A stretch of DNA of 64,000 nt, taken from positions 105,511-169,510 of the forward strand of contig CAWEHK010000021.1 of NCBI GenBank assembly GCA_963808625.1, written 5' to 3'. A program made the position numbers and the translations under genes. The stretch is from an uncultured delta proteobacterium. GTDB lineage: Bacteria > Desulfobacterota > Syntrophobacteria > Syntrophobacterales > Syntrophobacteraceae. The notes beneath the pieces are model-generated. The model ran no database searches. It was not told the origin of the DNA and was given only the letters and a program-made list of their open reading frames with translations. This document shows positions 26,230 through 37,293 of this stretch, in pieces; position 1 is the first letter of the stretch; each line of letters opens with the position of its first letter.

Positions 26230-27048
26230 ATGAGAAAGTTCATCGCGGTCTATGTTGATCTCGAAAATGTCGCCGGGATCGTAAATTTGGATAAGTTGCT
26301 TCAAGACATTATCCTGGAAGAGGATAAAGAGGCCCCGGAAGAGTACGTTTTCGCCGTCAAGTTTGCCTGTGGAAACACCAATTCCATCGCCAAATTGCGC
26401 GAGCAATTGATCAACCATAATTTCGATATTCGAGAAGCTCCTCATATTTCCGGCAAGAAAAACCGGGCAGACCTGATTATCAGCCTTGATGCGTTTGAAA
26501 AACTGTATCTGGACAAGCCGTCTATCGACCGCTTTGTTTTTGTCACCAGAGATTCCGATTTCTCTGTCATCATGGACATCTTGAGGAAATATGGCAAAGA
26601 AGTCTGGTTGATTACCCAGGCAGGCGATGCCCAACGGCCAATTTTTACCAGTTGCACCGACAACATTCTTCTTCTGCAACCCCAAAAGCCGGTCCCCAAA
26701 AAGGAAAAGAAGGATGCAAAAGTGGCTGCGGCAGGCCATGGGACGGGAGAAAAGAAACCTGAAAAGGAAGAGGAAGCTGAGAAACCAAAGGATAAGAAGG
26801 CTGAAGAGTTGTTCAAAAGGGTCCTCATCAGCCTCGATCCAAGCGAGGAGCACCTGCTGACCGCTATTGCCAACAAGATGAGGCAACTGGATAAATCCTT
26901 CAAGATCAAGAACACGAGCTATAAGAAAATGACCACTCTGGCAAAGGAATTTGAAAAGAAAGGAGGGTTTCGAACCATCAAAAACAAAGAGGGTCACCTG
27001 ATGATCATTGATTTAGACGTCTCACGAGGCGAAATTTCCGCCCCGTGA
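26230..27048 (+). CDS. NYN (LabA-like PIN-fold) protein with probable C-terminal OST-HTH/LOTUS domain
   Basis: AVYVDLEN, GKKNRAD, VTRDSDFS, LRKYGKEV; Lys/Glu linker, then LDKSF...Y..M..L. Confidence 0.88.
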   Translation: MRKFIAVYVDLENVAGIVNLDKLLQDIILEEDKEAPEEYVFAVKFACGNTNSIAKLREQLINHNFDIREAPHISGKKNRADLIISLDAFEKLYLDKPSIDRFVFVTRDSDFSVIMDILRKYGKEVWLITQAGDAQRPIFTSCTDNILLLQPQKPVPKKEKKDAKVAAAGHGTGEKKPEKEEEAEKPKDKKAEELFKRVLISLDPSEEHLLTAIANKMRQLDKSFKIKNTSYKKMTTLAKEFEKKGGFRTIKNKEGHLMIIDLDVSRGEISAP

Positions 27049-27069
27049 CCAAAAAGCAGCTTCCTCCTT

Positions 27070-27937
27070 TTAAATCAGCACGATCCTCCGCATCACCTCG
27101 CGGAAGAACTCGTTCGACCAGACCGCAAGGGCATCGGGGTCTTTTACAAAAGGTTCCACCTCTCTTCTGGCTTGCTCCAGGTTTACCTTCTCAGCCGCCT
27201 TCTCTGCGAGGGCGAAGAAACCTTCCCTGGTCAATTGTTCACCTTTCCTTGAGGTGTCCGCTCTGGATCATCCTCTGCTCCAGGTGGCCGAGGTGAAGCT
27301 GCGGATGGTATGCCGCATACCAGACCAGGTCGTACCAGTCACGTCCCTTGACCCGGGTCTTCCAGCGCCGGCAAAGCACCGCGTGCATCTTGCCGGCAAA
27401 AAGGTCCGGGAGGGCAAAGGTTTTCACTGAAAACGGGATCGGCTGCAGAAGGAACTTGTTTTCGGTATCGAATCCCGGTGGTGGGTCCGTATCGACCTCG
27501 ATCTTGATCTTCATGACCTGGCCACGGGGTAACTGCCTGGCGACCTTATCGGCTCTCTCTATGGTCAGCAAATGCTTCAAAGTGTCGGCCTTGAGAAACG
27601 CCGATTGGATTGGGCTTTCCGCAGTCTTTTCTCTCCTCGTCACACTGACCTCGAACCCGAACGAACGGATCTCACGTTCCAAGGCGCCGATATACCGGGA
27701 AAGATTGAAATCGGACATAGGCTCGATCAGGGAAAAATCGAGGTCCTCCGAAAAACGGTCCATTCCGTACAGGATCCTCAGTGCGGAACCCCCGTAAAAC
27801 GCAGCCTTCTCGAAGAACTTACTTCGCCAGAGGCCAAGCAAAGCAACCTCCTGCAGGATCTCGCGAAGGGCGTTCACGTAGTCTTCGACGCTTCGACACT
27901 GATAGCGGTCAAGCATGCGAACAATGGCATCATTCAT
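27070..27937 (-). CDS. AbiEii-family nucleotidyltransferase toxin (indel near 27240)
   Basis: AFYGGSALR, RFSEDLDF, IKIEVD, KMHA, KGRDWYD; shifted tail ends RRIVLI*. Confidence 0.9.
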
Positions 27938-28586
27938 GACCGGTCCCCCGCTTGCCAAGCCGACGAACCAAGCCGCACAGCAACCGGAGCTTCCGGGACC
28001 GGTATCGTTCAGCAATGTGAGCGAGGATATTGGCGTCCAGCCTTTCCAGGCCACCCGGATCAATCCGCAAAAGGGTCAACAGGTATTCCTTCATTTCGGC
28101 CTGACTGCGAATGCCCGCACCTCGCTCATCTTGGATCTTGTCAGCCAAAGCCTTTTCAGGAATGGCGATGAGGAAGGAGCGACCTCCCTCGAGTTCCACT
28201 TGATCGATGCCGATCTGATAGGCTCTCATGGGAATCCTGCGGTAGATGAACAGGCCGACAGGAGTTGAAAAACGCCTGCTGCGGCAGCAAGTAACGGATG
28301 TCAAGGCCTCAACGCGCTCCGGGATCAGCCCATGATAGTGCAGAGCAAAATCGAGGGACAGATAGGAAGGTCCGAAGATCATGTTAGCCAGGACCTCCCT
28401 TGAAAAAGGCCGCCGCGAGTATCTCTCACCAAAGACATAGATCCCCTTCTTGACCCTGATGATAGCCTCTTTTCGAAGCAGGTCCGTGATCTTATCGCGC
28501 GGGCGTGCATATTCCCTGAGACCATCCAAAAGGGCCTGGTAATCGAATTCCTCCCCCGCTATCCTCGCTCTCAGTTCTTCAATCAT
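27930..28586 (-). CDS. AbiEi-family antitoxin / transcriptional regulator
   Basis: IIRVKKGIY, PSYLSLDFALHYHGLIPE, PEKALAD; overlaps the AbiEii start. Confidence 0.88.
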   Translation of the reverse strand: MIEELRARIAGEEFDYQALLDGLREYARPRDKITDLLRKEAIIRVKKGIYVFGERYSRRPFSREVLANMIFGPSYLSLDFALHYHGLIPERVEALTSVTCCRSRRFSTPVGLFIYRRIPMRAYQIGIDQVELEGGRSFLIAIPEKALADKIQDERGAGIRSQAEMKEYLLTLLRIDPGGLERLDANILAHIAERYRSRKLRLLCGLVRRLGKRGTGHE

Positions 28587-28642
28587 CTCTTTTCCTGCAG
28601 TGTCGTGGATCATTCTCGTTGACGAAATATGGCATATTTTTC

Positions 28643-28675
28643 CATAGTATGTCGACATTTTTTCGACATACTATG
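28643..28675. promoter_or_regulatory. Perfect 13-bp inverted repeat, candidate AbiEi operator
   Basis: catagtatgtcga-N7-tcgacatactatg about 60 bp upstream of abiEi. Confidence 0.7.
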
Positions 28676-30144: not shown

Positions 30145-31282
30145 AGATATTCGACCTGACCAACCTTCCCACTCCCTGTTACGTGCTTGATGAACCCTCG
30201 CTGGAACAGAATCTGAGCGTGCTGCGATTCCGTGCAGGAGCGGACGGGCTGCAAGATCATCATGGCGCTGAAGGGCTTTGCCATGTTCAGCGTATTTCCT
30301 CTCATTCGGGAACACCTATACGGAATCGCCGCCAGTTCCCTCCACGAAGCGCGCCTTGGCTATGAGGAATTTGGCCGGGAAGTGCACGTCTTTGCGCCGG
30401 CGTATAAGGAAGCCGAGTTCGAGGAGCTTCTCCGCTACAGCAACCACATCATTTTCAATTCATTTTCCCAATGGAACCGTTTTAAACGCCAATTGGCCGG
30501 GCTGAAAAGCCGCGTGTCCTGCGGGATTCGCGTTAATCCCGAACACTCCGAAGTAAAGGTTGCCCTGTACGACCCATGCGCCCCTTTTTCGAGGCTTGGC
30601 GTCACTCTCGAAAATTTTCAGGAAGACCACCTTGACGGGATCACCGGTTTGCATTTCCATACGCTCTGCGAACTGAATGCCGATTCCCTGGCGCGGACGC
30701 TCCAGGTATTCGAGAAAAAATTCGGCGCGTTCATCGAACGGATGCAATGGGTAAATTTCGGTGGCGGGCACCACATTACCCGCGCGGATTACGATGTGGA
30801 CCTGCTTTGTGAGCTCATTACCGATTTCAAGAAGCGCTACCCGGTGGAGGTCTATCTCGAACCGGGTGAGGCCGTGGTGCTCAATGCCGGGGTCCTCGTG
30901 GCCTCGGTCCTGGATATTATTCACAACCGGATGGACATTGCCATCCTGGACGCTTCCGCGGCGGCCCATACGCCCGACGTCCTGGAAATGCCGTACCAAC
31001 CGGAAATCGAGGGCGCCGGAAAAAGCGGTGAATATCCCCATACCTATCGGCTTGGCGGTCCGACCTGCCTGGCCGGCGATGTTTTCGGTGACTATTCCTT
31101 CCCGGAACCGCTCCGCATCGGTTCGAAGGCTGGTTTTCACCGATATGGCCCATTACACGATGGTCAAGAACAACACCTTCAATGGCGTGGGGCTGCCATC
31201 CATTGCCATCCGGGATGCCCAAAAGCAGATCCGTATCGTGCGGCAATTTGGCTATGAAGACTATCGCAACCGACTCTCCTAG
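30141..31282 (+). CDS. nspC: Carboxynorspermidine decarboxylase (two indels)
   Basis: TPCYVLDE, ALKGF, LYDPC, HFHTLCE, FGGGH, EPGEA, GPTCLAGD, HYTMVKNNTFNG. Confidence 0.93.
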
Positions 31283-31335
31283 CTGACGACCACCTTTCTG
31301 GCCGGCAGGAAGAGCTGAACAGGGAGGAACAAGCG

Positions 31336-31704
31336 ATGCCCATATACGAATACCGATGTCGCCAGTGCGGCAAGAAGAGTGAATTCATCACGTTTCGGAT
31401 TTCTGAAACGGTTACCCCGAACTGCCGCCATTGCGGCGGCGAGCAGATGGATCGCATCCCTTCGCGGGTGCGCGTGCGGCTCTCCGAAGAAACGCGCATG
31501 GAGCGCCTCGCCGACCCGTCGCGCCTGGGCGGGCTGGATGAGAACGATCCCAAGAGCATGGTGCGGTGGATGAAAAAAATGGGCCAGGAGATGGGCGAAG
31601 ATTTCGAGGGCGAGGACATGGACGCCATGATCGAGGAAGCCATGGAAGAAGAGGCCCAGGGCAAATCCGGGGAGAGCGCGAGTCTTCCGGATGACAGTCT
31701 GTAG
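31336..31704 (+). CDS. FmdB-family zinc-ribbon protein
   Basis: MPIYEYRCRQCG...CRHCGG; acidic tail. Confidence 0.9.
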   Translation: MPIYEYRCRQCGKKSEFITFRISETVTPNCRHCGGEQMDRIPSRVRVRLSEETRMERLADPSRLGGLDENDPKSMVRWMKKMGQEMGEDFEGEDMDAMIEEAMEEEAQGKSGESASLPDDSL

Positions 31705-31733
31705 CCAGGCGTTGCGCCATCTTTTTAAAAGCG

Positions 31734-31776
31734 TCCACGAAGTCACACGAAGAGACGACGAAGCCACACCAAGAAA
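31734..31776 (+). repeat. Left arm of CACGAAG palindrome bounding the island
   Basis: tccacgaagtcacacgaagagacgacgaagccacaccaagaaa. Confidence 0.85.
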
Positions 31777-32017
31777 GCATAAAGCAAGGACCTATGGGCA
31801 GGAAGGGACACGGTACGCCTAACGCTGCCGACGACCTTGAAGACAATCCATCTTGACTGCTGCTTTCGGTGCAACATACTAAAATCAATAATCGCCCAAG
31901 GGAAAATACCGTGACAATTGGCTGGAGCATGTCAGGCTACGGCGGTGTCACGGCGCAACATAATGACAAAATCCCTGGCGGCCATCCGCAATTTGTATCC
32001 GGAAGTGGGGTAAACCA

Positions 32018-32182
32018 ATGGTTGTAATGCAAGCGGTATTGAGCCACCTTCGTCAGCGTCTCGCAGAACTTTATGGCCCGCGGCTCAACCGATTGCTTCT
32101 GTTCGGCTCCCGCGCGCGCGGTGATGCTGAGGAGGGGGCGGACCTGGATATCCTGGATGCAGTACTTCGTTCAGCATGGTAG
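32018..32182 (+). pseudogene. Truncated minimal nucleotidyltransferase (MNT) antitoxin
   Basis: Hand translation: LAELYGPRLNRLLLFGSRARGDAEEGADLDIL, then an early stop. Confidence 0.8.
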
Positions 32183-32249
32183 CAGAGGTAGAGGTCCCGA
32201 ATGTGCCAGATGTTTCTGGCTGAAAAACCTTCTATTCCCGGACATTCCT

Positions 32250-32359
32250 AGCTGGTTCTCATCCGGAAAGTGGCGCCTTGTTCTGTAGGAGGGGCTTCCA
32301 GCCCCGATCGCGGCTGGAAGCCCCTCCTACAAAATGGGGTTTCCGGATGGACACTAGCT
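32250..32359. mobile_element. MITE-like shell enclosing a REP doublet (copy 2)
   Basis: 110 bp, five differences from 60970-61079; 20-bp imperfect TIRs. Confidence 0.88.
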
Positions 32360-32443
32360 GTGCTTTGTATTTCATTTTATTCAACAGGTTTTATGAGACT
32401 CTCAGACAGGCCGTGCCGGAATACTTCGAAGCGTTCACTAGCC

Positions 32444-33000
32444 TTAAGGGTGGCAAGGTTTAAGCCGGACAGAATCGATAGGAAACAAGGCTGAGTGGGC
32501 GAGAATTCGTGGCAGCGACAGGTTGGCCTCGTCTTGAGAATCGAGCAATGCCTCGACTATCCATGAAATTTCCTTGGCGTCACGTGGTTCCATGACTCGT
32601 CCACGTAGATAGATTCCCGGTTTCTTGCCCTCCTGCAGAGCCCCTGACTCAAGAAACGTACTGAGATTGTAGCGAACTGAGCGATAGACGAAGTGACGGT
32701 CCCCGAACCGTTCGCGGATCCGGACGTTGACCTGGGAAGCATGAGCCTCGCCCTGCAAACGGAGAAGGCGCCCCGTTGCCTCGGCGACGTGTGCGATGAA
32801 GGGGTAAGCGGCCATGCACATGCCCCAGTTGAGAAGAAATGCGCTGTCTGCATCGGGCCTGTGGCGGAACATCTCCAAAGCCTCGTCGCGGAGCGCCGTG
32901 CAATAGGCCGGTGGCTTGATCCAGACGCGGTTCAGGTAAACGAAGACCTTCCGGACGGTCTCCTTGCCCTGGTGCCTGTCTTGGCAGGTGAGACAATTAC
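32444..33000 (-). pseudogene. BrxA-like protein of type 3 BREX, N-terminus missing
   Basis: LNRVW...LRDEAL...NWGMCMAAYPF...GRLLRLQG...QV..RI.E.FG.R; recognised by motif memory only. Confidence 0.68.
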
Positions 33001-33164
33001 CCTCGAATGCGGGGATGCTCCAACGAGAGAACTTCGGTGCCAGTCTGTTGGCCGTTTTTCCTGGTCGGGAATACAACCGGCCGGCTTTCCGTTTCATTCG
33101 GCCACCGCAGTTCCATCAGACCACCGCGGCGCTTGGTTGTTGTCACGCTGCGATGTAATGACGG

Positions 33165-33774
33165 TCTTTCACTATGCGCATTCACCCCTTCTGCCCTGTG
33201 GAAGATATTGCACAATCACTATGAGGATTTCAGGGTCGGCTATGACGAGCATTGTGAGAAGCAGTATGGGTTCTTTCGGCCGGTGGTGGATGAAGTCGTC
33301 GAGGAATACTTGAGATGTGGAGACTTGCACGAAGGATTCGCCAGAGTCCGCTGCACAAATCCGGATTGCCGGCATGAATACCTTTTGGCGTTTTCATGCA
33401 AGAGCCGCTGGTTCTGCCCCAGCTGCCATTCCAAGAAAACGATTCAGTTCGGGGAGGACGTTCCCAACAATATCCTTTTCCCTGTGCCGCATCGACAGTT
33501 TGTCTTCAGCATCCCGATCATGCTGCGCATCTATTTCAAATACGACCGGAAGCTCCTGACACGGCTTTACCACTGCGCCAACGACAGCCTGCAGAGGTTC
33601 TTCCGTACGGTGCCGGGCCTTGATGACGGCATCCTGGGGATGGTCATGGTGATCCACACCTTCGGGGATTACGCCAGGTTTCATCCCCATCTTCATGCCA
33701 TCGTCACAGACGGGCTTTTTCGACCTGACGGGACCTTTTACTGCCTCCCCAAGACAGAGTTTAAATGTTCATGA
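33165..33774 (+). mobile_element. IS91-family-like HUH transposase fragment
   Basis: YLRCG, GFARVRC, FSCKSRWFCPSC zinc domain, VPHRQFVFSIP, HTFG..FHPHLH; ends before the Tyr-containing C-terminal half. Confidence 0.88.
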
Positions 33775-33890
33775 AAGGATGTTTCACCCCTGATGATGAA
33801 AATTGATACCCCCAAAGTCCAATGATTTCATGGGGGTTATTTTCACGGTAAAGCAAACAACATCGATTTTTGCCCCTGACCACCTGGCAA

Positions 33891-34400
33891 TCAGCGCGCC
33901 GGGCAGGAGAACTCGCCAATCTTGATTAGGATTTCAGTAAACAGCGCTGATCCGATATGAAACCCGGCTTTTTCGCGAAGCTGAATCATTGCTTCATGTA
34001 TTGAGGGCAGATTCCCCTCTTGTTTGTCTCGAAGCAGTATTCCGAGAGTTCCGGTCACCTTCAGGCCAAAGTCTTTCGCTGTCTTGCGGCCCTCTCGTTC
34101 GTCCAATAAGGTCCACTTCGCATTCAGCTGCAGGGCAAGGGCAATGGCCTCTGCCTCGCCCTTATCGAGATCACGTTGAAGCAACCTCACGAGCGCGCCG
34201 TCCATAGCCTCCTGAACCCGAATCCATCCATCCCCGACCGCTGTCCGCATCTCAACCGAACCGGGCAAATCTTCTTGAATGCGCAGTTCTTGCAGCACAG
34301 AAGGCGGAATCGTTATGCTGCCAAATTGACTCCGAAGCAAATCGAGTCTGCCGATGATTGCCAGATTCAGAAGCGGCGAGGTGTTACTCACAGTTGGCAT
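33891..34400 (-). CDS. DUF3368 PIN-like putative toxin
   Basis: VSNTSPL, LDKGEAEAIALA, LLDEREGR, GTLGIL. Confidence 0.9.
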   Translation of the reverse strand: MPTVSNTSPLLNLAIIGRLDLLRSQFGSITIPPSVLQELRIQEDLPGSVEMRTAVGDGWIRVQEAMDGALVRLLQRDLDKGEAEAIALALQLNAKWTLLDEREGRKTAKDFGLKVTGTLGILLRDKQEGNLPSIHEAMIQLREKAGFHIGSALFTEILIKIGEFSCPAR

Positions 34401-34644
34401 AGATTAGATCGTCCGTCAGTTCTTCCTGACCATAATGCCTTGAGATGCCTCGCAGTCCCAACAAGCAGCCAAATTCATATTTGCCCATTGCTGCAAGTTC
34501 TCTGGCCTTACCGAAAGAGAGGGCTCCTTTCGCGTAAAGGGCAATGGCCAGTTCCACCAAAAGCTCCTGAGCCATCTCACCCTCCGGTATGCGGATAGCG
34601 TCGACCACCGAGTCCGGAATGTGCAATTGTAGCGTCATTGTCAC
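34384..34644 (-). CDS. UPF0175-family putative antitoxin
   Basis: LAIALY...LSFGKARELA..KYEF; overlaps the DUF3368 gene. Confidence 0.88.
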   Translation of the reverse strand: MTMTLQLHIPDSVVDAIRIPEGEMAQELLVELAIALYAKGALSFGKARELAAMGKYEFGCLLGLRGISRHYGQEELTDDLIYANCE

Positions 34645-34751
34645 TCCTGCGCTCTATTTTGCCAGTGATTATGAAAGGCATCTTGGGCAAATATAGCGCG
34701 TTTGCCTTCAGCGTTCAATGCGCAACTTGTCCGCTCGTTCCCAAGCTCCAG

Positions 34752-34930
34752 GGCTTAGGGACAAACCAAGATTTATCAAGGGGATCTGCATTTCCACGCA
34801 CATCTTCTTGAGCAGGTTGGTTTTCCCTGAACCACTTCGTCCAACAACCAAGACTATCTTGTAATAGCAGGTATCGGCATGATTAATAGCCGCACTGTAG
34901 GCCAAATCCTTTAAGATATTCTGACTTTCC
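34752..34930 (-). pseudogene. BrxF-like P-loop protein fragment (type 3 BREX)
   Basis: YYKIVLVVGRSGSGKT...IPLINLGLSLS, stopping at REP-like ctcgttcccaagctccag (34734-34751). Confidence 0.7.
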
Positions 34931-34944
34931 ACTATTTGACGGTG

Positions 34945-34986
34945 TTTATTCGTGTGGCTTCGCAATGCTTCGTGTGCCTTCGTGGA
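34945..34986 (-). repeat. Right arm of CACGAAG palindrome bounding the island
   Basis: Reverse complement tccacgaaggcacacgaagcattgcgaagccacacgaataaa aligns with 31734-31776. Confidence 0.85.
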
Positions 34987-34995
34987 TGAAAGCTT

Positions 34996-37293
34996 TTATT
35001 TTGGACGGAGAGTGCTGCGCAGTTCGTCCAGTTCTTCAAGCATGGCCTGGCTGACCTGGTGGGCGCGCGTCAGGGTTTCAAGCAATGCCTGGCGTTCGGT
35101 GCCGTCGCGTATTTCTTTGGTCCGGAAGATCACCCAGATTCACTTGCACCATGTGTGCCCTGAGCTCGAACTCCCCGAGCAAACGACCGGCTTCTTCGTG
35201 CACGATCCGATACAGATAATCTGATTTGAATTTTGTCCTGGTATTCCTGAAAAGCCTGGGTGAGTTCTTTGCCGGCTTCTTTCTTCAAGAGCTTGGTCGC
35301 TTCCTCGACGAGGGTTTCACGCCGTTTTTCAGTGACGAGCAAATCGCTGGGCCTGCCAGGCTTCGAGCCCAGGCTCCCCAGCAGGCGTGTGAAGCTGGCG
35401 AGACCGAGTTTCATCAGGAGGATACCCCGCCCGATGGCCCCCTGATCCACGAAAGCACTGAAATTCGGGGGTGCGATGGTAAGCCTCTCCCGGCAACTCT
35501 CTTCGGCCGATTCGAACGCTGCAAAGTGGTCCTTGTCAAAGAGTCCCGACCCGCCGCGATAATCTTCCAGGGCGGTGGTAAAGAGGGTCCAGAACGCCTC
35601 TGAGGCCAGCCTGAGCCGTTCACAAAGGGCGGCTTCCTCCTGCTTGGCGAAGGCAATCACCTGCAAATTGACTTTTTCCACGAGGTAGCGCGCCAGGGTC
35701 TGCCGGAATTCCTGATACAGACGATGGAACTGCTGGAAGAGCCGCTTGGTGTCGAGTTGATCCGGCTGCTGTTCCAGGTGGATGGGATAGTTTTCCACCG
35801 CTTCCAGGGTTTCTTTGACGATACGACTCTGCGCAAAATCAAAATAGGGGTCCACCGCCCGGTCGATCTCGTCCCGAAGCGAGAGCTGCAGCCCGGAGAT
35901 CGCATTCCTGAGCGTCTCCAGTGAGCCCAGGAGCCGCTCTCCCCTGTCCTTCAGGCCTGCCGCCGCCTGCCGTCGACCCTCGCGGCCCTGATCGAGGAGC
36001 TCCCTCTGCGCCGCGGCCGTGTTCATCACACTGCCGGCAACCATGCCGAGGCGGCTGAGGCCGCTTCCGCAGAGGACCCGAAACCTTTGCCCACAAATCT
36101 CCTGGCTCAACGATTCCCGAAAGGCGTTGAAACCGGTTTCCGTCATTTGCGCCAGCGCCGCTTCTTCCTGCCATAGTTGCAGGTGCCGCCGTTCCCGCTC
36201 GGTCGCCGCATCCTCCAGTTGGGCAATAAGATGGTAGAGGGCCGAGAAGATGAAGAAGCGGGGGTCGCGCACCACCCAGGAGAGTTCGCTTCGGACGCGA
36301 TCCGCCAGGCGTTCCAGATCTTCCTGATGGGGGTGATCATCGAGGTCGGCATTCAGGACGAAGAAGGTCTGGGGAAACATTTTCAGGGTCTTGATAAAGT
36401 CGAGGAGTCGAAAATCGGCTTCCCGCAAACCCGACCGGCTGCTCACGACGTAGAGGATAAAATGGCTCCTGAGCAGATATTGCTGCAACAGAGCAAAATG
36501 AAGCGGGTTGGGTGAATCGATGCCCTGGCAGTCGGCAAGTTCGATGCCTTCTCCCAGCCAGGTGACGGGGTAGTGGAGCTCCATGTCCCGGAGATAAACC
36601 GCCTGTCCCTCGGAACCCACATAATCGCTGGTGCTGCTCCAGGGAATGCTCGTCGAACACGAGCCGATACTTCGTGTCACCAAGAAACTGGTGCACCCGT
36701 CCATAGCCCTCGAGGTAACCCCGCACCAGCATATGACTCGGGTCGAGGTGGCCATCCTTATGCCGCCATTCATCCTGCATCCGCGTCAGCAGGAGCTTGA
36801 GCCGCTCACGATCGTCGGCGTTGCGGAGATCGAGTGAATGATTTTCATCCACCAGTTCGTAATAATGAGGGAGCATCTTCAGGGTGGTATTCAGTTCGTC
36901 CAGGATTTGCGGCCAGGGTTTGAATTCGACCCAGCCTTCGGTTTTACCGTTGGTGATGAGGCGCGTGATGAAAGCGGTGATGATCCCTGCTCCCCGCTTG
37001 AGGAGGTCTCTTCCCACCAGGGCATTGATGAGGGTACTCTTGCCCGATTTGACCGTTCCCACCACGGCAATGCGCAACAGCGGGTCTTCCAGTGAGGATG
37101 TGACCTGGACCAATTGCTCTTGCCACCGGGCGGATGCAGCTTCTTCAACAACCTTGGAGGATTCGATCTCCCGAATGGTTTCTCCAAGGATCGCCACCCG
37201 CTGAGCAATCTTCTTCTTGAATTCACGATATTCGGTCATGGCTCGCCGCCGTCCGGGTTTGGCGGGCGTTTCGCTCTTCTTCTTTCTTGGCAC
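34996..37293 (-). CDS. Bacterial dynamin-like GTPase (frameshifted; start 37293 or 37239)
   Basis: IAVVGTVKSGKSTLINALVG, ELADCQGIDS, long helical stalk; pieces 36337-37293, 35130-36773, tail ends LRPK*. Confidence 0.82.

Follow-up and report, generated by a model that had tools for sequence, protein, structure and literature searches.

Genetic organisation of the locus

The DNA examined here, referred to as the window, is a 64,000-nucleotide stretch of a contig from an uncultured member of the Syntrophobacteraceae. At positions 31734–34986 it contains a segment of about 3.2 kb that carries remnants of a bacteriophage exclusion (BREX) operon and is enclosed by two inverted arms of a short tandem repeat, located between convergent genes for an FmdB-family protein and a dynamin-like protein. 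The arms pair in two parts, an outer one of 19 nt (31734–31752 and 34968–34986, 95% complementary) and an inner one of 18 nt (31759–31776 and 34945–34962, 89% complementary). They lie 30 positions from the stop codon at 31704 on the left and 10 positions from that at 34996 on the right. The near-exact inverse arms and both distances had been given in a preliminary description of this DNA, and the measurements agree with it. In what follows, G000 is the genome under study, G001–G007 are its relatives within the genus (eight genus genomes in all) and C is a contig number. The frame of the locus consists of four features (strand in brackets, here and below).

31336–31704 (+): FmdB-family zinc-ribbon gene, the left anchor (PF09723, TIGR02605); kept in relatives
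31734–31776 (+): left arm, three CACGAA-type units of the 10-base-period subfamily; orthologous in G007, G002, G006 and G005, decayed in G004
34945–34986 (−): right arm, the inverse of the left; orthologous arm in G007 and G002
34996–37293 (−): dynamin-like gene, the right anchor (PF00350); split by 1-bp insertions

Insertions of 1 bp near 31126, 35237 and 36622, relative to the sequences of both G007 and G002, break a carboxynorspermidine-decarboxylase-like gene and the dynamin-like gene; from this comparison, they are likely to be assembly errors. No tRNA gene was found in the 64-kb window, and no Rfam family matched within 31000–35600. Contig C21 contains no PF00589 integrase, though the genome has 30 matches, and no match to the integron integrase TIGR02249; attC boxes (RYYYAAC ... 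GTTRRRY) were found at neither arm end. The earlier statement that integrase, tRNA and attC are missing stands for the contig, the window and the arm ends, respectively. Two TIGR02249 matches over the cut-off, partial in length and integron-integrase-like, are located at G000:C51:2310-3002 and C15:72461-73135. A promoter and terminator scan was uninformative (4 and 4 sites vs 2.3 and 3.5 in shuffles). An AbiEii/AbiEi-like pair and an NYN-domain gene occupy window positions 26230–28658, 3 kb to the left of the locus and outside any arms found.

The same junction in related genomes

In two relatives both arms stand close together at the same junction. They are 240 bp apart, arm to arm, in G007, with an NTS-like repeat inside, and 120 bp apart in G002, where the centre is a whole REP hairpin of the GTTCCCAAGCT family. 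The centre between the arms measures only 70–160 bp in these genomes, and their arms and outer flanks align with those of G000. G005 and G006 carry an empty copy with a decayed right arm. The empty palindrome that the preliminary description had proposed to seek in relatives is, therefore, represented by two short alleles and two decayed copies. In G004 the left arm at this junction is decayed and a different gene comes next, and the junction of G001 holds 3.7 kb with three ordinary genes (methylmalonyl-CoA decarboxylase-like, DUF2092 and DUF6515). Kilobase-sized cargo occupies the junction in three of the eight genus genomes and lies between locus-type arms only in G000. Judged from these alignments, the two arms are halves of one split element that is older than the cargo, since both arms with their flanks are paired at short range in G007 and G002.

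A contig of sequencing run X4 is 94% identical over 31385–31753, and the 163 letters left of it include right-arm-like sequence, supported by 28 letters; the contig is likely to represent a further short allele of the junction. Two other arm-to-arm joints in reads (20-letter sides) are probably other copies, and four runs compared with the G007 allele gave no contig spanning it. At family level, an rluA-type gene lies between the anchors in all six loci where both anchors were seen (one of them profile-scanned; for example, L014:1856-2791). This gene has no close match in G000 (best 31%) and seems to have left the junction before the hairpin arrived.

Origin of the enclosed DNA

Pfam, PADLOC and NCBIfam searches assign the enclosed DNA as follows; MNT denotes a minimal nucleotidyltransferase and MITE a miniature inverted-repeat transposable element.

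31777–32017: DNA without homologue; unmatched among 121 other genomes of the class, two short frames without Pfam match
32018–32156 (+): 5′ part of an MNT gene, its frame continuing to 32182 (PF01909, E 3e-6)
32155–32247 (−): internal fragment of a DUF1016-like gene (78% DNA match to G004:C34; PF17761 at E 0.004, below cut-off)
32249–32360: 110-bp MITE with 20-nt terminal inverted repeats and an inner 27-nt hairpin; about 20 further near-full genomic copies, 81–100% identical
32392–32973 (−): 3′ part of brxA, BREX type 3, about the first 47 codons missing (PADLOC BrxA, E 8e-42)
32974–33182: DNA between brxA and the transposase; no Pfam match above noise, one metagenome contig covering 32963–33134
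33183–33765 (+): 5′ part of an IS91-family transposase gene (PF14319, PF04986; NF033538 below cut-off)
33761–33856: 93-bp dispersed element that cuts off the transposase; three other genomic copies, 93–98% identical
33891–34400 (−): DUF3368 gene, intact (PF11848, PADLOC PDC-S70)
34384–34644 (−): UPF0175 gene, intact, likely antitoxin (PF03683)
34726–34751: half of a REP-like hairpin of the GTTCCCAAGCT family; a whole copy fills the same palindrome in G002
34752–34932 (−): 5′ part of brxF, BREX type 3, presumed start 13 nt inside the right arm (PADLOC BrxF, E 1.5e-10; NF033453 below cut-off)

The MNT, MITE, brxA-like, IS91-like, UPF0175–DUF3368 and brxF-like components named in the preliminary description are all borne out, and the DUF1016-like fragment at 32155–32247 had been overlooked there. 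The DUF3368 product is presumably a PIN-type toxin. A metagenome contig matches 31957–32156, in the MNT part, and then diverges.

The brxA part has 82–83% DNA identity to brxA of G003:C81 and G010:C10, and the brxF part has 81% DNA and 83% protein identity to brxF of G010:C10. The two parts share a strand and correspond to opposite ends of the G010:C10 locus, itself a shortened BREX-3. Of nine fetched brxA loci, eight begin with brxF and end with brxA, the two genes being 14–18 kb apart; the ninth stops at a contig end. brxC has no match in the genome, and the matches to pglZ and the helicase lie on other contigs; the BREX methylase was not searched for, and 3.2 kb leaves no room for one. Since the brxF start and the brxA end match the two ends of one BREX-3 locus, the cargo is likely to be what remains of a single BREX type 3 operon after an internal deletion of about 13 kb or more. 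Going by its gene content, it is a remnant and not a working system.

Only one of the six gene units in the cargo, the toxin–antitoxin pair, is whole; five are fragments, two of them from one operon. The fragments are defined by homology breakpoints and not by single frameshifts, and the BREX and toxin–antitoxin pieces are unique in the genome. The breakpoints coincide with small repeats, as had been noticed for brxF and the transposase: brxF homology ends at 34752 at the REP half, and the DUF1016-like piece ends at the MITE. The transposase part, 84–86% identical in DNA to copies in G002, G003 and G007, loses homology at 33758–33765, with position 33765 at the 93-bp element. The toxin–antitoxin pair, the IS91 piece and the small repeats may be nested debris, an arrangement that fits insertion followed by deletion at repeats. 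The cargo contains no arm-like words, and the longest word shared by its ends is 5 nt, with no longer target duplication.

It was also considered that the arms had travelled with their contents. For BREX this was rejected: no arms were found at the nine fetched BREX-3 loci or at G003:C81 or G010:C10, and a scan of the genome collection with the brxF fragment gave eight loci, of which the single true brxF is without arms. Homologous DUF3368/UPF0175 pairs occur twice among 121 other genomes (G043 and G051); joint travel with this pair was rejected as well, no arm being seen by eye in the flanks of the G043 pair (the G051 flanks were not scanned).

Other copies of the 93-bp element are found at G000:C52:25400, C3:36686 and C15:68073. 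At least two of the three are centred in NTS/SRM-like hairpins, and this small element may target such repeats. A second BREX-3 remnant is present at G000:C19:99400-104500, where pglZ is split by IS91-like transposase pieces (labelled by eye) and brxA is apparently whole; it adjoins two GxxExxY genes.

Distribution of the arms

A count of the strict arm word gave 230 in the genome and none in one block-shuffled copy, so the motif is not a product of chance. Within 260 nt, 182 of the 252 arms are partnered, forming inverted doublets dispersed through intergenic DNA in the manner of REPINs; 70 are single, 53 of these being of the 10-base-period type. The exact 10-period word has 22–58 copies in seven of the eight genus genomes and none in G003, and one match was obtained among 73 other genomes of the family. 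Arms are present in both main clades of the genus according to a tree of two gene regions, which has a weakly placed root and was used only for this purpose. Two empty hairpins of the same arm family lie in the window.

404–478: empty hairpin, 9-base period (fold z −10.3); also at the same junction in G007
2379–2453: empty hairpin, mixed period (fold z −7.1); an arm at the same junction in G002

Their kinship with the locus arms, asserted earlier, holds, both being hairpins of the same word; the period subtypes differ, the locus arms having a 10-base period. The preliminary description had also named an observation that would speak against its capture-site reading, namely single arms routinely following stop codons, which would let two convergent genes create the pair by chance. 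This was rejected: only 12 of the 53 single 10-period arms have a stop codon within 100 nt on the outer side, 15 have a start codon there and 26 have neither.

G002 contains 74-bp copies of the arm element, with related spacers, at junctions that are empty in G000; no target duplication was seen by eye at these copies. Metagenome contigs yielded 132 distinct arms at 123 loci, comprising 89 short hairpins, 25 arms at contig ends, 11 singles and seven filled readings. The filled readings represent six distinct pairs: a GxxExxY gene lies in one, a DUF433–DUF5615 pair in another, whose partner arm is weak, and genes for metabolism or repair in two; of the last two, one holds DNA without a family match and one DNA without an open reading frame.

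Several further arrangements were observed. Behind many of the single 10-period arms lie 7-base tandem arrays that belong to other families, which gives mixed arm pairs, at times in tandem (G000:C34:28975-29200, C33:141172-141400, C48:31700-31960 and others). REP-like, NTS-like and 9-period repeats are recurrently nested in palindrome centres (L022:1090-1135, L021:1180-1245, L120:2866-3168). At L078:3030-3190 (G007:C334) an arm lies exactly where a DUF5615-like gene is cut off; the matching site of G000 has the DUF5615-like gene together with a further toxin–antitoxin-like pair (labels by eye).

A predicted nuclease gene between arms

At G000:C8 an arm pair brackets a gene for a 125-aa GxxExxY protein (266481–266858; PF13366, TIGR04256). 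The arm-bracketed cassette occupies one conserved junction in G000, G001, G002, G006 and G007, with 73–77% identity. A 66%-identical gene with variant arms occurs in another genus; a nuclease-type gene flanked by its own repeat is thus found in five genus genomes, one genome of another genus and one metagenome contig. The preliminary description had suggested searching for a nuclease or recombinase family that co-occurs with the arms, and this gene answers to it.

The residues D70, E80 and K82 are invariant in all six GxxExxY sequences. A structure model built from the six-sequence alignment has a predicted local distance difference test (pLDDT) score of 81. Its best fold matches are Cas4, restriction-like and lambda-exonuclease proteins, i.e., PD-(D/E)XK nucleases, with a best E of 0.0011, and the fold search gave no match at E ≤ 0.001; a PDB sequence search returned no match. 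The model points to a PD-(D/E)XK-type nuclease fold, and the arm repeat family is likely to be served by this small putative nuclease gene. To our knowledge, GxxExxY proteins are widespread and have no assigned function. No description of GxxExxY-associated arms was found in the literature searched, most subscription papers being outside the search.

Other filled sites and facing arms

A second arm site, behind an oxidoreductase gene at G000:C52:55263, keeps its proximal arm in six genomes while the DNA inside differs. G002 has an empty copy. G001 (C8) has 3.0 kb up to a second arm, with a Gp49/HTH_37 toxin–antitoxin pair and PEP-CTERM and PilZ pieces, and G004 has 1.6 kb up to a second arm. 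G000 and G007 have other genes, with no second arm seen, and in G006 a gene lies directly behind the arm. The far flank also differs among G001, G004 and G002, so the site represents a rearrangement and not a clean slot.

G000 has seven facing arm pairs no more than 12 kb apart, whose content was read with a crude gene caller and labelled by eye: one is the nuclease cassette, one the locus, and five hold mostly ordinary genes. The proposal that paired arms enclose toxin–antitoxin or defence genes beyond chance fails on this count, and defence-specific arm pairing genome-wide was rejected. Neighbouring single 10-period arms 0.3–6 kb apart face each other in five of 11 cases, against 2.75 expected from strand shuffling (P 0.09).

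Junctions were compared in a sample of DNA round the exact-match arm sites of G007 and G002 (55 regions) and 12 short pairs elsewhere; two G007 sites near contig ends were excluded, as was the locus itself from the statistics. Cargo change or a synteny break is found at 15/40 arm junctions and 10/63 controls (p 0.018). The arms themselves keep about 90% identity between relatives, and the 40 nt outside orthologous arms are still homologous in 11 of 15 comparisons. Overall, the arms are retained, their content is exchanged, and the newcomers include more than defence genes.

Formation of the locus

Palindromes are hotspots for DNA breaks. The best reading, to which a probability of about 0.5 is given, is that the hairpin at this junction formed a break-prone spacer that was filled by ordinary recombination or the repair of breaks, possibly after putative cutting by the cognate nuclease. 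A hairpin with a short centre occupies the junction in several relatives. Hairpin copies would have spread between gene junctions as units, with the nuclease acting in trans. A cut or nick at the arms, made by this nuclease or by host hairpin nucleases, would then have allowed the centre to be replaced while the arms stayed. In the lineage of G000 the incoming DNA may have included a BREX-3 operon of 14–18 kb. The homology breakpoints suggest that the toxin–antitoxin pair, the IS91 element and the small repeats later entered the operon, and that deletions ending at small repeats removed brxC to pglZ and collapsed the insert to 3.2 kb. Uptake of this kind would be neither specific for defence genes nor cassette by cassette.

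Sequence between arms is replaced more quickly than control intergenic DNA. Homology persists over the 40 nt interior to orthologous arms in 4/24 comparisons, against 73/150 at armless controls (Fisher p 0.004), in a test that dropped comparisons whose 40 nt met the partner arm or coding DNA, that is biased towards this result (arm-word masking penalises short spacers, and controls may hold promoters) and whose comparisons are not independent, the G007 and G002 sets overlapping. A paired test of outer against inner spacer identity, of a design favouring controls, was not significant (p 0.12 and 0.38).

These limits count against the break-prone spacer, as do several other results. Cargo change of at least 500 bp is not enriched at arms (6/31 arm vs 6/59 armless junctions, p 0.33). 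The junction cargo of G001 has only a 9-period hairpin beside it and no locus-type arms, and G003, a genome without 10-period arms, holds 2.2 kb there with two unassigned genes and 42% GC; with kilobase cargo at the junction of both genomes and no such arms around it, the arms are not needed for uptake here. G004 and G005 have arms and yet, at E ≤ 1e-35, no cognate GxxExxY gene (both assemblies are fragmented); the gene was not found at this threshold in G003 either. Arms and cognate gene share one clade, so their co-occurrence is one event. Reads of this strain were absent from the runs examined, none of which covers more than 0.14 of the stretch, so that the cargo junctions are known from the assembly. 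The preliminary description had held that cargo carried by relatives without arms would refute it, and such cases exist in the armless BREX homologues and in the other cargo, not enclosed by these arms, of G001 and G003; the arm pair at the locus is nonetheless real and orthologous.

A bolder form of the same idea would be a spacer-exchange system, in which the GxxExxY enzyme cuts arm pairs in trans and the arms serve as portable recombination handles, so that anything from a 25-bp spacer to a 15-kb operon could be swapped at fixed gene junctions without integrase or transposase. The locus would then be the fossil of the largest capture. This form is considered unlikely.

The hairpin may instead have been a passive landing pad, a tentative explanation that has to be kept in view. 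The convergent-gene junction would be an ordinary transfer hotspot, and DNA would have landed in the unconstrained centre of a pre-existing hairpin, whose arms survive by hugging stop codons and may help to end or protect transcripts. The three genus genomes with kilobase cargo, only one of them between these arms, agree with this, G001 and G003 fitting well, as do the rluA-type gene at all six family-level junctions with both anchors and the lack of a significant excess of cargo change at arm junctions. Hotspots that have no integrase and recombine at the core genes beside them are described as common (PMC5635113), and separated REPIN halves have been proposed to arise when DNA inserts into the doublet (PMC3116915). 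A passive centre accounts less well for two observations, namely that homology is lost sooner within arms than elsewhere between genes and that synteny breaks are more frequent at arms. It also leaves aside that the brxF start lies only 13 nt inside the arm, similar to the nuclease gene in its own cassette, and that the second site keeps its proximal arm while all inward DNA differs among six genomes.

The integron-like interpretation of the preliminary description, in which the palindrome centre is a dedicated site for adding or swapping toxin–antitoxin and defence genes with an enzyme supplied in trans, appears improbable. Part of it stands: the palindrome is split, empty and filled alleles exist, a nuclease-fold gene co-occurs, and the 3.0-kb arm-bounded block of G001:C8 brings a Gp49/HTH_37 pair to a site that is empty in G002. 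One of the six filled metagenome pairs holds DUF433–DUF5615, with its weak partner arm, and the two TIGR02249 matches lie in the genome, on other contigs. The claim fails on the cargo itself, a collapsed BREX-3 operon plus debris with one whole unit in six, without an arm between its genes or attC boxes, and on the mostly ordinary genes in five of the seven facing pairs of G000, the rearranged second site with its differing far flank (G001, G004 and G002) and the armless BREX-3 loci elsewhere (0/9 fetched, G003:C81 and G010:C10).

Chance pairing of two single arms, or mis-assembly placing foreign pieces between them, might be suspected from the 53 single 10-period arms with their slight excess of facing neighbours, the 1-bp assembly errors and the low read coverage, and is very improbable given that G002 and G007 have both arms, outer flanks included, at this junction with 120–240 bp between them, and that the pieces are cut at homology breakpoints and repeats, the BREX and toxin–antitoxin pieces being unique in the genome.

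Comparison with known systems and significance

The closest parallels in operation are the Ssn GIY-YIG nucleases with their NTS/SRM hairpins and the REPIN–RAYT systems. Ssn–SRM (PMC11893778) likewise has a small nuclease gene of one domain with its hairpin repeat on both sides, many gene-less copies and a suggested link to recombination near the repeats. The protein family of the present arms differs in being a putative nuclease of PD-(D/E)XK type (PF13366) and not GIY-YIG; the arms consist of three short tandem units round a variable spacer, their word is unlike the NTS motif, and an NTS-like repeat is only a passenger inside the palindrome of G007. REPIN–RAYT systems (PMC3116915) are similar in that the mobile unit is probably an inverted doublet, that many copies depend on a single enzyme gene, that singlets arise when a doublet decays or is interrupted by an insertion, and that other repeats nest inside. 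In contrast, the gene seen between these arms is PF13366/TIGR04256 and no HUH tyrosine transposase, in a search that did not cover arms beside RAYT genes, a single arm is not palindromic, and spacer length varies widely (47–121 bp elements in G002). Since enzyme family and repeat build differ, the arm–nuclease family belongs to neither system, though it appears to work most like them.

Integrase-free transfer hotspots resemble the locus in their conserved flanking genes, differing content, missing integrase and rapid gene turnover; they are described without a conserved hairpin (PMC5635113), whereas here, in one lineage, the breakpoints lie between arms that have been kept. Integrons and integrase-less attC clusters also gather accessory toxin–antitoxin and defence genes at one site with an enzyme possibly acting in trans, but the locus has no attC, no site between genes and no array of whole one-gene cassettes. 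A composite transposon or MITE-bounded unit differs in that the arms predate the cargo and the ends share a word of only 5 nt. Compared with BREX type 3, the brxF start and brxA end are in the right order on one strand, and brxC, methylase, helicase and pglZ are absent from the locus; BrxF is described in PMC10164562.

What the locus adds is a series of orthologous alleles at one junction, from empty to operon-filled. With a single cognate gene, arms numbering about 50 per genome and alleles that are empty, filled by a repeat or filled by an operon, the genus offers a defined substrate and enzyme for testing. Should cutting at the arms prove to drive the replacement of spacers, part of the integrase-free transfer hotspots would be explained by it; otherwise, the locus would be an ordinary remnant of a defence island that lies by chance within a dispersed hairpin.

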